A stretch of DNA of 30,658 nucleotides. It comes from Pseudomonadota bacterium (lineage in GTDB: Bacteria; Pseudomonadota; Gammaproteobacteria; Steroidobacterales; Woeseiaceae). Location: positions 1 to 30,658 of the forward strand of contig JAKSCZ010000327.1 of assembly GCA_022360335.1 (NCBI GenBank). Reading direction: 5' to 3'. Below the pieces are notes generated by a model. That model was not told where the DNA came from and did not search any database. It saw only the letters and a program-made list of their open reading frames with translations. Below are positions 1-23,725 of this stretch, piece after piece. Each line of letters begins with the position of its first letter. The stretch's first letter is position 1. The position numbers and the translations under genes were made by a program.

Positions 1-165
1 CATTTCCAGCAGGCCGTCGGCGGCCGCCGGTCGGTCGATGCCGGCGGGCCAGGCGCGCGATACGGTCCAACCGGCCGTGCGTCGGCGGTACGTGAATCGG
101 TAGTGGTCGAGTTCGGCGATGCGACGCTGTACTCGTACGTCGATCGCGTCGGGTTTCATCTGCAT
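1..165 (-). CDS. 5' part of a gene running off the left edge; possibly GH38 alpha-mannosidase N-terminus
   Basis: ATG at 165 opens a frame with no stop to base 1 (MQMKPDAIDVRVQRRIAELDHYRFTYRRRTAGW...). It starts 27 bp after the ABC ATPase stop on the same strand. The RRIAELDHYRF segment recalls N-termini of bacterial GH38 alpha-mannosidases from memory, but only 55 aa are visible and no catalytic domain is in the window. Confidence 0.4.
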   Translation of the reverse strand, partial: MQMKPDAIDVRVQRRIAELDHYRFTYRRRTAGWTVSRAWPAGIDRPAAADGLLEM

Positions 166-192
166 AGCGGCTGAGTTCTCTCGTCTGGGTGA

Positions 193-1329
193 TTATCGCC
201 TGTCGGATCGGCGGACGTCGTGATTGACGATCGCCCGTTCCGTGCCGGCGTCGAAAAAGTGCAGCCTCTCGAGATCGACGGCCAGACCGATCGATTCGCC
301 TTTTCCCGGTAAAGCCTGCGGCGAAACCCGGGCGATCAGCGGTTGTTCCGAGATCGATCCGTAAACGAAACTCTCGTTGCCCATCGGCTCGATCCGGCTG
401 ACGACCGCGTCCAGGCGCGCCGTCCGGTCGGGCAGGCGCCGACTGTCGGCGACATAGAGATCTTCCGGGCGTACGCCGAGAACGACACGCGATCCGGCAT
501 AGGCCTCGAGCGCGGCCCGTTGCGCCGGCAGCGGTTCCAGGTCGAAGGCGCCGTTGCGTTCGCGGAATACGGTACCGCTCCCGGCCGGTATTTCGCCGTG
601 CAGGAAATTCATCGCCGGACTGCCTATGAATCCCGCGACGAAGAGGTTCGCCGGACGGTCGTACAGGCTCAGGGGCACGTCGGTCTGCTGTACATGACCT
701 TTGTGCATGACGACGATCCTGTCGCCCATCGTCATCGCCTCGACCTGATCGTGGGTGACGTAGATCATGGTTGCGCCGAGCCGCTGGTGCAGGCTCGTGA
801 TCTCCGTGCGCATCTGCACGCGCAGTTTCGCATCCAGATTGGAAAGCGGTTCGTCGAAAAGGAAGACTTCCGGCTCGCGGACGATGGCGCGGCCGACGGC
901 CACGCGCTGGCTCTGTCCGCCGGACAGCTGCCTGGGCTTGCGGTCGAGCACGGCCCGGATACCGAGGATTTCGCTGGCATCGTCGACGCGCCGGCGAATG
1001 GCGTCTTTCGGCAGCTTCCTGCGCCGCAGACCGAAGGCCATATTGTCGAACACCGACATGTGCGGGTACAGGGCGTAGTTCTGGAAGACCATCGCGATGT
1101 CGCGGTCCTTGGCTGCAACGTCGTTCACCACGCGATCGCCGATCGACAGGCGTCCTTCCGTAACGGACTCGAGTCCGGCGATCATGCGCAACGTGGTGCT
1201 CTTGCCGCAGCCCGACGGACCGACCAGGACGACGAACTCGCCGTCCGCCACCTCGATATCCGCGCCGTGTACCGCGACGAAGCCGTTGTCGTAGACCTTC
1301 CGGACCTTCTCGAGAGTCACGCTCGCCAT
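193..1329 (-). CDS. Sugar ABC transporter ATP-binding subunit (MalK/UgpC/MsmX family)
   Basis: Walker A GPSGCGKST, signature LSGGQ, Walker B/D-loop FLFDEPLSNLDAKLR, YVTHDQVEAMTMGD and a C-terminal TOBE-like region. SD-like AGGGGGA lies just upstream of the ATG. Confidence 0.96.
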   Translation of the reverse strand: MASVTLEKVRKVYDNGFVAVHGADIEVADGEFVVLVGPSGCGKSTTLRMIAGLESVTEGRLSIGDRVVNDVAAKDRDIAMVFQNYALYPHMSVFDNMAFGLRRRKLPKDAIRRRVDDASEILGIRAVLDRKPRQLSGGQSQRVAVGRAIVREPEVFLFDEPLSNLDAKLRVQMRTEITSLHQRLGATMIYVTHDQVEAMTMGDRIVVMHKGHVQQTDVPLSLYDRPANLFVAGFIGSPAMNFLHGEIPAGSGTVFRERNGAFDLEPLPAQRAALEAYAGSRVVLGVRPEDLYVADSRRLPDRTARLDAVVSRIEPMGNESFVYGSISEQPLIARVSPQALPGKGESIGLAVDLERLHFFDAGTERAIVNHDVRRSDRR

Positions 1330-1363
1330 GAGTTCCCCCTGCGATGCATCGCTTCAGCCCGTC

Positions 1364-21380: not shown

Positions 21381-21392
21381 TTGGGTGGGTCA

Positions 21393-22169
21393 ATGACCGA
21401 CGACTGGCACGAGGGATTGAGAAGTCATTACGTCTGCAAGAGGGTATCGCGGGCGCTCGACCTCGGGCCGGGACGCGTGGACCCGTTGTGGGACGAGTTG
21501 CCCTGGAGCGAACCGTTCGTCGACATCACCGGCAACGACGACCTGCGGCCGCGTTTCGCGACGCGCGTCCGCATGGCCTGGGACGACGATCGTCTGTATG
21601 TCCAGGGGGACCTCGAGGAACCGCACGTCTGGGGAACGATCACCCGGGACAACGAGGTCATGTTCATGGACAACAACTTCGAGATCTTCATCGACCCCGA
21701 TTGCGACGGCCTCAACTACTACGAGTTCGAGATGAATGCACTGGGCAGCGTCTGGGAACTCAGTTTGCCGAAGCCGTACGGCGCCGGTGGCGAGCCGCGA
21801 CTCGGCTGCAATATCGACGGCCTGATCCGGCGGGTTCGAATCGACGGGACCCTGAACGATCCCCGCGATACGGATCGCGGCTGGCGTCCCGAAATCGCGA
21901 TTCCCTGGAGCGGGCTGGCCGAGTATCATCGCGGCGGGCATTGCCCGCCACGACCGGGAGACCGCTGGCGCGTCAATTTCTCGCGCGTCGAATGGCGCCA
22001 CGAGATCGTCGACGGGAAGTACGTGCGGATTCCGCCGCACGGCACCCCCGTAGCCGGGAGCCTGGATCCGCAACAGCAGGAACATCCCGAGGACAACTGG
22101 GTGTGGAGCCCGCAAGGCGCGGTCAACATGCACCTGCCGGAACGCTGGGGAGAGGTGAGATTCGAATGA
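21393..22169 (+). CDS. Stand-alone carbohydrate-binding family 9-like (DOMON-like) protein
   Basis: TRVRMAWDDDRLYV, EEPHVWGT, DNNFEIFIDP, YYEFEMNALG, EIAIPW, WRVNFSRVEW and NWVWSPQGAVNMHLPERWG. No signal peptide visible. Confidence 0.8.
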   Translation: MTDDWHEGLRSHYVCKRVSRALDLGPGRVDPLWDELPWSEPFVDITGNDDLRPRFATRVRMAWDDDRLYVQGDLEEPHVWGTITRDNEVMFMDNNFEIFIDPDCDGLNYYEFEMNALGSVWELSLPKPYGAGGEPRLGCNIDGLIRRVRIDGTLNDPRDTDRGWRPEIAIPWSGLAEYHRGGHCPPRPGDRWRVNFSRVEWRHEIVDGKYVRIPPHGTPVAGSLDPQQQEHPEDNWVWSPQGAVNMHLPERWGEVRFE

Positions 22170-23725
22170 AGAAAGGTCATTGGCTCGTAGTGATCGCGGC
22201 GGTGTGCCTCGCAGGCTGCGGCTCGAGGGAAACGGACCAGGGCCTGCCGCGCGTAGCGATCGCGGGCCTCGCCATCGAGTCCAGCACCTTCTCGCCGGCC
22301 CGCACGCACGAGGAGGCGTTTCGCGCCAGGCGCGGCGACGAGGTCTTCGCGTCCTACCCGTTCTATGCGGACGGCTCGCAGATCATGTCCCGTGCCCGGT
22401 ATTTTCCGGCATTGACGGGCAAGGCGATACCCGGCGGTACGGTCACCCGGGCCGCGTACGGGAAACTCATGGAGGAGATGCTCGACAGGCTGCGGCGGAA
22501 CCTTCCCTACGACGGTGTGTTCCTCGATCTGCACGGCGCGATGAGCGTCGAGGGGCTCGACGATCCGGAAGGCGACCTGATCGCGAGGGTCCGCGACGTC
22601 GTCGGCGACGACGCCCTCATCTCGACGTCCATGGATCTGCACGGCAACGTGTCCTGGCGGCTCGCGGCCGAGAGCGACCTGATCACCTGCTACCGCATGG
22701 CGCCTCACGAGGATGCGCTCGAGTCCAAGCAACGGGCGCTGACGAATCTGCTGGACCGGCTCGCCAGCGGCGCCGGCCGTCCCGCCTTCAAGGCCTGGAT
22801 CCCCGTGCCGATCCTGTTGCCCGGCGAAAAAACGAGCACGCGGGTCGAGCCGGCGAAGAGCCTGTATGCGCGAATACCGGCGATCGAGGCGCGTGACGGC
22901 GTCGTCGACGCCGCAATATGGATGGGATACCCCTGGGCCGACGAACCGCGCAATCATGCCGTCGTGATGGTCGTCGGCGACGACGAGGAGCAGGTCACGA
23001 GCGGCGCCGAGTCGCTGGCGGCACACTTCTGGGCGGTGCGCCACGAGTTCGAGTTCGTCGCGCCGGTTGCGAGCTTGCACGACGCCCTGGACCGGGCCCT
23101 CGCGAGTGACCAGCGACCGTTCGTCATCAGCGATTCCGGGGACAACCCGACGGCGGGCGGGGCGGGCGACGTGACCTGGACGCTCAACGAGCTGCTGCAG
23201 CGGCCCGAGTTCCGGTCCGGCGACGGGCCCTCCGTCATTTACGCATCGATACCCGACGCGCAGTTCGCCGACCGTGCGCTCGAGATCGGCGTGGGGGGAC
23301 GGATCGACGTGCACGCCGGCGCTCGTGTGGACGATCGCTACGCGCCGCCCGTGCGCCTCGCCGGTACGATCCGTTCGATATCGACCGGGGACCCGGACGC
23401 GCAGGTCGAGGTCGTGGTCCGGGTGGGCAGCGTCGACGTCATCGTGACTCGCAAACGCAAGCCCTACCACTACGAAGCGGACTTCGACCGCCTGCGGCTC
23501 GAGCCGCGCGACACGGACATCCTGATCGTGAAAATCGGCTACCTGGTGCCGGAACTCTACGACATGCGCGGCGGCTGGCTGATGGCGCTGACGCCGGGCG
23601 GCGTGGACCAGAACCTCGACCGCTTGCCGTACCGCCGGATCCGGCGCCCGATCATTCCGCTGGACCCGGATATGGCGGACCCCGACCTGCGCGCACGCCT
23701 GGTGCCGCCGTCGGACAGTTACTGA
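22166..23725 (+). CDS. M81-family (MlrC-like) metallo-hydrolase, predicted lipoprotein
   Basis: ATG overlaps the upstream stop (ATGA); lipobox LAGC. RVAIAGLAIESSTFSP, LDLHGAM, DPEGD, SMDLHGN, YRMAPHED, SDSGDNPTAGG and VKIGYL match the MlrC pattern. Confidence 0.88.
   Translation: MKKGHWLVVIAAVCLAGCGSRETDQGLPRVAIAGLAIESSTFSPARTHEEAFRARRGDEVFASYPFYADGSQIMSRARYFPALTGKAIPGGTVTRAAYGKLMEEMLDRLRRNLPYDGVFLDLHGAMSVEGLDDPEGDLIARVRDVVGDDALISTSMDLHGNVSWRLAAESDLITCYRMAPHEDALESKQRALTNLLDRLASGAGRPAFKAWIPVPILLPGEKTSTRVEPAKSLYARIPAIEARDGVVDAAIWMGYPWADEPRNHAVVMVVGDDEEQVTSGAESLAAHFWAVRHEFEFVAPVASLHDALDRALASDQRPFVISDSGDNPTAGGAGDVTWTLNELLQRPEFRSGDGPSVIYASIPDAQFADRALEIGVGGRIDVHAGARVDDRYAPPVRLAGTIRSISTGDPDAQVEVVVRVGSVDVIVTRKRKPYHYEADFDRLRLEPRDTDILIVKIGYLVPELYDMRGGWLMALTPGGVDQNLDRLPYRRIRRPIIPLDPDMADPDLRARLVPPSDSY

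Follow-up and report, generated by a model that had tools for sequence, protein, structure and literature searches.

The window analyzed here is the complete contig C351 (GenBank JAKSCZ010000327.1, assembly GCA_022360335.1; 30,658 nucleotides), the longest of the 656 contigs of a metagenome-assembled genome (MAG) of 2.9 Mb and 93.5% completeness that belongs to the family Woeseiaceae. Its left-hand part, an island of approximately 24 kb (positions 1-23725) that extends from the start of a gene of glycoside hydrolase family 38 (GH38) through the gene of an M81 family lipoprotein, is predicted to encode an accessory system for feeding on the high-mannose N-glycans of eukaryotic glycoproteins. 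The general scheme, that is, N-glycan utilization with import by an ATP-binding cassette (ABC) transporter and cytoplasmic demannosylation, appears quite probable from the gene content; for the specific version in which free glycans are released at the cell surface by a GH85 endo-beta-N-acetylglucosaminidase (ENGase), imported by a TonB-dependent receptor (TBDR) and the ABC transporter, and digested in the cytoplasm, we estimate a probability of about 0.5.

Under the proposed route, the GH85 lipoprotein would cut the chitobiose core at the outer membrane and free the mannosyl-N-acetylglucosamine oligosaccharide, Man(n)GlcNAc, with an FG-GAP/UnbV lipoprotein assisting in glycan capture, and the TBDR would move the oligosaccharide into the periplasm. 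A MalK-powered importer of the CUT1 family, in which the solute-binding protein (SBP) is fused to one of the permeases, would then carry the glycan into the cytoplasm, where an Ams1/Man2C1-like GH38 would strip the alpha-mannoses, a GH2 beta-mannosidase would split the leftover Man-beta1,4-GlcNAc, and NagK, NagA and NagB-II would turn N-acetylglucosamine (GlcNAc) into fructose-6-phosphate. Mannose would probably be handled by the products of genes in other parts of the genome, an AGE-family isomerase and a ROK kinase, an SGLT-like symporter would probably take up small products in parallel, and the M81 lipoprotein may handle the peptide remnant. The compartments of the window proteins are predicted from the presence or absence of signal peptide and lipobox sequences, and it is likewise from sequence that we infer the substrates, the order of the steps, whether GH85 acts on the outer or the inner face of the outer membrane, and how large a glycan is carried.

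The contexts of two close homologs of the fused permease, each on a metagenome contig, appear decisive for the coupling of GH85 to the ABC branch. In locus L030 (80% identity to the fused permease of the window), the genes for GH38, MalK and AraC are divergent from those for the fused permease, the second permease, an AGE-family protein and GH85; in locus L031 (73% identity), the fused permease, the second permease and GH85 form one unit that adjoins AraC-MalK-GH38. The L030 GH85 is 65% identical to the window enzyme, as close as that of the syntenic relative G041/G279 ('Woeseiaceae bacterium PL25b_bin.32', a MAG of the same genus), so that one and the same enzyme belongs to the ABC operon in L030 and to the TBDR operon in G041. 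Furthermore, NagK is encoded by the last gene of the ABC operon in the window and GH38 follows malK; therefore, the simplest substrate of the importer would contain both alpha-mannose and GlcNAc, that is, would be the GH85 product. ABC import of this product to a cytoplasmic GH38 had been proposed in a preliminary description of this DNA, made from the sequence alone, and is supported by the L030 and L031 arrangements.

GH85, GH2 and the Nag enzymes

The GH85 protein matches the profile PF03644 over positions 10-300 of 302 (E-value 8e-72, 242.8 bits against a cut-off of 22.2). At the N-terminus it carries a lipobox of the PROSITE type (L-C-A-C), with a Pro/Ala linker after it; its relatives have lipoboxes (L-G-A-C, L-P-G-C or A-A-A-C) or signal peptides as well, and the enzyme is probably an outer-membrane lipoprotein. 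The closest solved structure is Endo-A (3fhq), with a full-length alignment (E 1e-70) in which the catalytic N-x-E and the Tyr of W-Y-D, which we take to be N171, E173 and Y205 of Endo-A, are conserved (VNQET/INQET and HWYDSM/MWYDSM). Endo-A prefers high-mannose glycans. The GH85 enzymes that have been characterized act only on N-glycans (PMC10154615).

The GH2 protein contains the four Pfam domains of beta-mannosidases, shows their five-domain architecture and matches BtMan2A (2je8) over residues 27-820 (E 3e-194), with both catalytic Glu motifs, CGNNE and SEFGFQSFP, retained. A signal peptide is absent from this protein and from all five orthologs read, and the enzyme is predicted to be cytoplasmic, with its catalytic residues retained, in all eight related loci. 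The gene shares its LacI operator with the GH85 operon, and the co-regulation suggested by these sites is the context for a putative preference for Man-beta1,4-GlcNAc over beta-mannan oligosaccharides.

Among the GlcNAc enzymes, NagA scores 302 bits with TIGR00221 (cut-off 226), whereas the best matches of NagB-II (NF046059, E 2e-98) and NagK (NF046058, NagK_SO3507, E 9e-95) are below the cut-offs of the respective models. No GH18, GH20, GH76 or mannan-backbone enzymes were detected by family scans of the window proteins, and neither GH20 nor GH18 was found across the 93.5%-complete MAG, so that the Nag genes have no obvious source of GlcNAc besides the proposed pathway. These results bear out the inventory of the preliminary description, which had listed a GH85 lipoprotein, a GH2 beta-mannosidase without signal peptide, nagK, nagA and nagB-II, a TBDR, a sugar ABC transporter (here MalK, the SBP-fused permease and the second permease, identified with Pfam) and the lack of GH20 in the window; all the named genes are present, and the list omitted the AraC and LacI regulators, the FG-GAP/UnbV lipoprotein, the SGLT-like symporter, the CBM9-like protein and the M81 lipoprotein.

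The GH38 alpha-mannosidase at the left edge

The window includes the first 55 codons of the GH38 gene, on the minus strand, with the start codon 27 nt past the malK stop. The encoded peptide is 73% identical to residues 1-55 of the complete 1095-aa GH38 that is encoded after malK in G041. Contig C75 of the MAG overlaps the left end of the window (558 nt, 94.8% identity) and continues into GH38 (PF01074, E 5e-78), and contig C544 carries the final ~117 residues of GH38, followed by a PhyH-like gene and then a DUF6851/VCPO-like gene. A GH38 at this edge had been suspected in the preliminary description, and the family assignment stands on the strength of C75 and of synteny with G041. A plus-strand reading, in which the edge would hold the last 57 aa of a gene, is ruled out by the minus-strand match and by the continuation in C75.

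The G041 enzyme has all four domains of the family, and a long N-terminal extension precedes the catalytic domain, which begins at residue 269. Among solved structures, the nearest relatives are Ams1 (E 2e-141) and four bacterial alpha-mannosidases of ~1060 aa, 7ufr to 7ufu (E 7e-131), presumably the N-glycan GH38s of Bifidobacterium longum. Signal peptides are absent from GH38 here and from all homologs read. Thus, two of the findings that had been named in advance as damaging to the scheme, a left-edge gene that is not a mannosidase and a secreted GH2, were not encountered: the edge gene is of the Ams1/Man2C1 type, and both enzymes lack signal peptides.

Several features of this region deserve mention on their own. 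C75 repeats window positions 1-558, with the MalK tail 93% identical at the protein level, which points to co-assembly of two strains or to collapse of a repeat and is the probable reason for the contig break inside GH38. In G041, GH38 directly precedes a gene for a GH99 endo-alpha-mannosidase-type lipoprotein (L017:10363-11547), in the position taken by the PhyH-like gene in the window genome; a DUF6851/VCPO-like protein of 650 aa follows next, both in G041 and on C544. In L030 (4475-7682), GH38 is split into two frames that overlap near residue 500, owing to a frameshift or an assembly error, and a 361-aa opposite-strand gene called over the split GH38 is probably spurious.

The fused ABC importer

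The fused permease (817 aa) consists of a signal peptide, a CUT1 solute-binding domain, a helical linker, an extra transmembrane (TM) helix and a 6-TM MalF-like permease. In the hydropathy profile, a TM helix at 493-511 is followed by six more, and the extra helix is predicted to yield a topology that keeps the binding domain in the periplasm. The importer has the CUT1 components, namely a family-1 binding protein, two BPD_transp_1 permeases and a MalK with a TOBE/OB tail, the atypical feature being the SBP-permease fusion. The second permease contains, judging by hydropathy, a periplasmic insert of ~185 aa between TM1 and TM2. In ten other contexts of the fused-SBP family, the partner permeases are 379-431 aa long (412-431 aa in nine of the ten), so that the insert looks like a hallmark of the family and might serve the tethered binding domain as a docking surface.

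The family of ~800-aa fused permeases is represented in MAGs labelled as Bacteroidota, Latescibacterota, Phycisphaerae and Ignavibacteriales, among others. Within the subfamily of at least 60% identity, the fused ABC genes of Rubrivirga adjoin a GH2 beta-mannosidase, LacI and SusC/D, and those of L035, a Bacteroidota-like contig, are accompanied by a GH38-like gene, two PhyH genes, SusC/D and an FG-GAP/UnbV protein. In an Ignavibacteriales MAG, a 46%-identical fused permease adjoins GH130 and a NagX-like gene. Below ~52% identity, the neighborhoods are unrelated (URO-D/rhaM, GH43, housekeeping genes), and therefore the substrate assignment is not extendable to the whole family.

From these contexts we tentatively propose, at somewhat less than even odds, that the ~800-aa SBP-fused CUT1 permease and its insert-bearing partner represent an unrecognized, cross-phylum importer family of diderm bacteria for N-glycan core oligosaccharides, from Man(n)GlcNAc to Man-beta1,4-GlcNAc. 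This importer would have repeatedly teamed up with TBDR/SusC, FG-GAP/UnbV proteins, GH85 and Ams1-like GH38, and two back ends (ABC/GH38, or GH92/GH125 with a symporter) would have been swapped horizontally onto a LacI-TBDR-GH85-GH2 core.

Genes for PhyH-like Fe/2-oxoglutarate dioxygenases adjoin the fused ABC or GH38 genes in four unrelated contexts: C544 (L020:2352-3221), L030:17926-18765, L032:16027-16815 and L035:4272-5889. Genes of 562-584 aa located beside SusD in two Bacteroidota-type contexts were considered as divergent GH85s and rejected, as they have no Pfam match at all.

The TBDR operon

The TBDR belongs to the Xanthomonas/Caulobacter subfamily (TIGR01782, TonB-Xanth-Caul, 672 bits) and has no CarboxypepD_reg domain; no SusD-like protein was detected among the window proteins in the Pfam and NCBIfam scans. 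The intergenic gaps from TBDR to M81 range from -20 to 68 nt, and the genes are therefore taken to form one operon, with the M81 gene at its end. The FG-GAP/UnbV lipoprotein holds the position that is taken by lipoproteins with F5/8-type-C domains in related loci and is a candidate glycan-binding partner of the TBDR. Both this protein and the M81 protein have textbook lipoboxes (LSGC and LAGC, respectively), and the latter possibly trims a glycopeptide remnant. The best solved relatives of the symporter are vSGLT and SGLT1/2; given this second inner-membrane carrier, a parallel route for small products is likely. The CBM9-like protein, which has only an automatic family name, co-varies with the island, and its gene was not found in ~40 congeners or in 400 sampled Gammaproteobacteria.

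The TBDR frame opens at a TTG at 10919, with a palindromic LacI site between this codon and the ATG at 11027, which has a GGGGGA ribosome-binding site and is followed by a normal signal peptide; the longer form is probably not made.

Regulation

The island appears to comprise two regulons rather than one operon: LacI is predicted to control GH2 and the TBDR-to-M81 operon, and AraC the ABC-NagK operon together with malK-GH38. A 14-bp palindrome, TGTAACCGGTTACA, occurs in two exact copies (0.01 expected), one before GH2 and the other, extended to 20 bp, before the TBDR gene. Both sites are kept at the same positions in G041 (L008), and in a second Woeseiaceae genome (L009) the same palindrome precedes the TBDR-GH85 operon and a GH47 gene. 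The LacI orthologs of the GH85 loci examined are 53-91% identical. The araC gene is framed by a 43-nt inverted repeat, of which a 12-bp core is kept at both araC ends in G041 (L017) and L030; the ABC-NagK and malK-GH38 units thus carry the same AraC box. A MAG-wide search for the LacI operator and the AraC box yielded no further sites outside the window contig.

The concept of the proteobacterial carbohydrate-utilization (CUT) locus, a TBDR gene clustered with genes for glycoside hydrolases, a carrier of the inner membrane and a regulator that responds to sugar, was reportedly introduced by Blanvillain and colleagues in 2007. The island has the composition of such a locus, with TBDR, GH85, GH2, ABC, SSF, LacI and AraC genes within 24 kb and operators before TBDR and GH2. 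A consensus scan of positions 5000-24500 for promoters and terminators was uninformative, as neither a promoter nor an intergenic terminator came up.

A different LacI-type palindrome, TGTAAACGTTTACA, is present twice on the 6.5-kb contig C118 of the MAG (positions 3405 and 6165), which suggests another small sugar regulon.

Related loci and distribution

Eleven loci were retrieved through GH85, seven from Sphingomonas (three of these on metagenome contigs), two from Agaribacter and two from Woeseiaceae; the metagenome scan with GH85 added the three Sphingomonas-type loci and no others. LacI, TBDR and GH85 are common to all 11, and a cytoplasmic GH2 is encoded in all except L009. Ten of the 11 lack the ABC importer and GH38; in their place are exported alpha-mannosidases of GH92, GH125 or GH47, a ROK kinase and a carrier of the SSF or MFS type. 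Between TBDR and GH85, Agaribacter and L009 encode a lipoprotein in which the F5/8-type-C domain is present four times; Agaribacter also has a gene for a Tat-exported Asparaginase_2 (glycosylasparaginase type), and the Sphingomonas loci include a POT-family carrier. The combination of LacI-TBDR-GH85-GH2 with GH92, GH125, GH47 and the glycosylasparaginase-type enzyme reads as a signature of high-mannose N-glycan use with periplasmic trimming.

The LacI-TBDR-GH85-GH2 core and the ABC/GH38 branch occur together only in the window and in G041, where the whole island is conserved, including the binding sites of both regulators. The right-hand neighbors differ (an AhpC/TSA-like protein and a TBDR in G041, a kynurenine operon in the window), so that the island occupies different genomic sites in the two genomes. 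GH85 was detected in three of the 301 sampled genomes of the order, namely, the window MAG, its syntenic congener and one other member of the family, and within the genus in the window MAG and G041 only (~40 relatives searched); hence there is no broad vertical conservation to lean on. The fused permease was not found in the ~40 congeners searched either. The island is thus a rare accessory block; it travels as a unit, and its origin is probably horizontal. The relatives are not independent samples, and therefore the co-variation of the genes is supporting evidence only.

Tryptophan-halogenase-family genes follow TBDR in the Sphingomonas N-glycan loci (L005:14974-16683), and the MAG itself contains at least five tandem copies of such genes on contigs C583 and C219.

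Comparison with known systems

The two central enzyme families of the island are those of the eukaryotic cytosolic free-oligosaccharide pathway, where ENGase (GH85) is followed by Man2C1/Ams1 (GH38) in the service of quality control. The families and their order are the same, but both eukaryotic enzymes are cytosolic, whereas the window GH85 is exported and the pathway would be nutritional.

Among bacteria, B. longum and Streptococcus pneumoniae process high-mannose N-glycans with GH85, an ABC importer, intracellular GH38/GH125 and a core beta-mannosidase (PMC10154615, PMC5215778). The window resembles these systems in the extracytoplasmic GH85, the CUT1-type ABC import, the intracellular long Ams1-like GH38 and beta-mannosidase, and in that no hexosaminidase is needed. 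In contrast to the window, these bacteria have no outer membrane and hence no TBDR step or outer-membrane lipoproteins; the binding proteins are lipoproteins of their own rather than parts of the permease; the core beta-mannosidase is GH5_18 instead of GH2; and they employ GH125, which was not found here. S. pneumoniae first trims the glycan with a surface GH92, a step that is lacking in the window scheme.

The closest predicted counterpart of the TBDR module is the man-II locus of Shewanella amazonensis (Sama_0290-0303), a bioinformatic prediction of 'mannoside utilisation' (Rodionov et al., 2010; PMC2996990) that includes a LacI regulator, OmpMan, GH92s, an endo-alpha-mannosidase, an endo-beta-N-acetylglucosaminidase, a beta-mannosidase and a sodium symporter. 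The window shares with it LacI, the TonB-dependent transporter, the endo-beta-N-acetylglucosaminidase (the S. amazonensis GH85 is 46% identical), the beta-mannosidase and the sodium symporter. However, man-II encodes many exported GH92s, mannose uptake, and ManI and ManK within the cluster, has no ABC importer, GH38 or Nag genes, and was read as a locus for the use of mannose oligosaccharides rather than N-glycans (PMC2996990). GH92 and ManI/ManK are absent from the window, and the GH92, ROK and AGE genes of the MAG are on contigs without the LacI operator. It is the loci of the periplasmic variant (Sphingomonas, Agaribacter and L009) that match man-II.

The high-mannose polysaccharide utilization locus of Bacteroides thetaiotaomicron (GH18 BT3987 with GH92s; PMC10154615) and the nix cluster of Xanthomonas campestris (PMC4173781) share with the window an endo-enzyme, TonB-dependent import and stepwise exo-glycosidases. 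Both differ in having a GH18 endo-enzyme, periplasmic trimming and no ABC importer, whereas the window has GH85 and no GH18 was found in the MAG; of the nix-type set, a GH18 endo-enzyme with GH20, GH92 and other enzymes in the periplasm, neither GH18 nor GH20 was found in the MAG. Furthermore, Bacteroides employs SusC/SusD, and the window encodes a TBDR of the Xanthomonas/Caulobacter type without a SusD-like protein. The preliminary judgment that the system follows the logic of S. pneumoniae more than that of Bacteroides or nix thus agrees with the lack of SusD and with the failure to find GH18, and no characterized example of the hybrid was found in the literature, again as had been stated. 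None of the papers retrieved by full-text searches on GH85, TonB-dependent transport and N-glycans describes such a system, and none is mentioned in two reviews, one on the breakdown of N-glycans by bacteria (2023) and one on glycoside transporters (2026). The core of TBDR, GH85, GH2 and LacI (as predicted in Shewanella), TBDR-plus-ABC designs and GH85/ABC/GH38 designs are already known; what is added is the combination.

The two GH92 contigs of the MAG have contents of their own. On C327 (L019), GH92 adjoins genes of myo-inositol catabolism (IolC, IolD, IolB), a ROK kinase and an AGE-family (mannose-isomerase-like) gene, and on C303 (L018) the GH92 lipoprotein is encoded between a TRAP transporter and another TBDR. 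These clusters are possible routes for mannosyl-inositol or other alpha-mannosides and likely a sink for released mannose.

Alternative explanations

Several observations weigh against the route proposed above. The two modules appear to be under different regulators, and their coupling is drawn from gene neighborhoods. The best 60 of the 447 solved relatives of the solute-binding domain are binders of other oligosaccharides (arabino-oligosaccharides, acarbose/maltose and the like; E 3e-21 or weaker), and none of these 60 is labelled as an N-glycan binder. In the signal peptide of GH85, the n-region is weak and lipobox position -2 is taken by an atypical Cys. The joining of GH38 to C75 and C544 rests on the 94.8%-identical overlap and on synteny, with 55 codons in the window itself, and GH125 was not found in the MAG (with one Sphingomonas query), so that GH38 would also have to remove the last alpha-1,6-mannose. 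A search of public DNA and RNA runs showed no RNA run carrying the locus. Finally, of the two GH92 genes of the MAG, the one that is complete (on C303) encodes a lipobox, and exported GH92 lipoproteins together with the SGLT-like carrier of the LacI operon could support a purely periplasmic route.

Instead of free glycans, the TBDR might import small N-glycopeptides, from which a periplasm-facing GH85 would free Man(n)GlcNAc for the ABC importer, leaving a GlcNAc-peptide remnant to M81 and other peptidases. We regard this version of the same general scheme as about half as likely as surface release, with several facts in its favor: the TBDR operon ends with an M81/MlrC-type peptidase lipoprotein, the Tat-signal Asparaginase_2 of Agaribacter and the POT-family peptide carrier of Sphingomonas would fit an Asn-linked remnant in the periplasm, and most proteobacterial lipoproteins face the periplasm. 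However, the lipoproteins encoded next to TBDR, FG-GAP/UnbV in the window and four-fold F5/8-type-C in its relatives, have the appearance of proteins that bind glycans at the cell surface, and in the characterized systems the endo-enzyme works at the cell surface before import (PMC10154615). It is also conceivable, with a distinctly low probability, that two independent systems lie side by side. The LacI regulon would then be a self-contained 'mannoside' system of the Shewanella/Sphingomonas type, with periplasmic GH92 trimming, uptake of Man-beta1,4-GlcNAc or monosaccharides via the symporter, and completion by GH2 and NagA/B, and the AraC regulon would import some other alpha-mannoside. The different regulators and operators, seven related loci that do without ABC by using SSF/MFS carriers and exported GH92, GH125 or GH47, the GH92 genes of the MAG (including the lipobox-bearing one on C303) and the sugar type of the window symporter all agree with such a separation. 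It is weakened by the presence of GH85 inside the fused-ABC operon in L030 and L031, and also by the position of NagK in the ABC operon, so that the ABC substrate should yield GlcNAc. Moreover, the GH92 contigs as assembled showed no LacI operator in the MAG-wide search, the window symporter is only ~25% identical to those of the Sphingomonas and Agaribacter loci, and both modules are found together in two carriers, with neither found in the ~40 congeners searched. It is also quite possible that both routes operate side by side; this would agree with surface release followed by ABC import instead of speaking against it.

That the substrate is not a eukaryotic N-glycan at all, but rather the outer chains of fungal mannan, chitin-derived material or a microbial glycoconjugate, seems very improbable. 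G041 does add the GH99 endo-alpha-mannanase-type lipoprotein after GH38, and bacterial GH99, GH92 and GH38 are known to act on yeast mannan too (PMC10154615). Nevertheless, yeast mannan is an extended N-glycan that still needs the core cut, all characterized GH85 enzymes are N-glycan specific, the window genome has the PhyH-like gene where G041 has GH99, and, as noted, GH18, GH20, GH76 and mannan-backbone enzymes are lacking among the window proteins, with no GH18 or GH20 found in the MAG.

Implications

Woeseiaceae are regarded as core members of marine sediment communities, and glycoproteins of algae, corals and other eukaryotes may therefore be a specific source of carbon and nitrogen for a minority of them. 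Near-identical sequence is present in coral reef metagenomes, as a search of public runs showed. N-glycan foraging has been worked out almost exclusively in gut and pathogenic Bacteroides, streptococci and bifidobacteria, and in the plant pathogen Xanthomonas; the present locus and its relatives suggest that GH85-based N-glycan systems exist in environmental Proteobacteria, namely reef-sediment Woeseiaceae, Sphingomonas and Alteromonadales. If the assignment of the fused-permease family is correct, diderm bacteria have put together their own counterpart of the eukaryotic route in which ENGase is followed by Man2C1. A widespread odd ABC architecture, the SBP-permease fusion, gains a testable substrate assignment. 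Endo-A-like GH85s from Gram-negative lineages could be of interest for glyco-engineering. Cultured strains suited to these predictions are Sphingomonas leidyi DSM 4733, Agaribacter marinus NBRC 110023 and Shewanella amazonensis SB2B.

Gene calling and features of the window

The G+C content of the window is 66%, and raw lists of open reading frames (ORFs) are therefore crowded with shadow frames. Genes were chosen by third-position G+C (GC3 frame plot) and the products were then scanned against Pfam and NCBIfam. The placement of the MAG in Woeseiaceae agrees with the relatives retrieved through GH85. The features of the island are listed in Table 1.

Table 1. Genes and candidate regulatory sites of the predicted N-glycan utilization island (window coordinates)
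Feature	Position	Strand	Basis or remark
GH38, N-terminal 55 codons, Ams1/Man2C1 type	165..1	-	73% identity to G041 GH38; runs off contig
MalK/MsiK-type ABC ATPase	193-1329	-	PF00005, OB_MalK and TOBE_2
Left arm of 43-nt inverted repeat	1381..1423		contains AATGTTCAAAAT; candidate AraC site for malK-GH38 unit
AraC-family regulator	1424-2395	-	AraC_binding/cupin and HTH_18
Right arm of 43-nt inverted repeat	2387..2429		araC/ABC divergent promoter region
SBP fused to CUT1 permease, 817 aa	2458-4911	+	SBP_bac_1 and BPD_transp_1 (Pfam), hydropathy
Second permease, MalG-like	4915-6180	+	Pfam, hydropathy
NagK, GlcNAc kinase (BadF/SO3507 type)	6177-7103	+	PF01869; NF046058
LacI-family repressor	7199-8194	+	Pfam
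Candidate LacI-type operator 1, TGTAACCGGTTACA	8248..8261		upstream of GH2; exact-palindrome count
GH2 beta-mannosidase, no signal peptide	8344-10881	+	Pfam, BtMan2A match
Candidate LacI-type operator 2, perfect 20-bp palindrome	10946..10965		upstream of TBDR start
TBDR	11027-13888	+	plug and barrel; TIGR01782; ORF opens at 10919
FG-GAP/ASPIC-UnbV lipoprotein	13957-15669	+	Pfam; lipobox LSGC
GH85 endo-beta-N-acetylglucosaminidase, Endo-A-like lipoprotein	15688-17418	+	PF03644; lipobox L-C-A-C
NagB-II, SIS-type glucosamine-6-phosphate deaminase	17424-18434	+	NF046059
NagA, GlcNAc-6-phosphate deacetylase	18431-19606	+	TIGR00221
SGLT-like sodium:sugar symporter	19587-21380	+	PF00474
CBM9-like protein, 262 aa	21381-22169	+	profile scan; no signal peptide
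M81/MlrC-like metallopeptidase lipoprotein	22166-23725	+	profile scan; lipobox LAGC

On the right, the island is flanked by a four-gene kynurenine operon (23822-27877) that encodes 3-hydroxyanthranilate dioxygenase, kynureninase, kynurenine monooxygenase and tryptophan dioxygenase.

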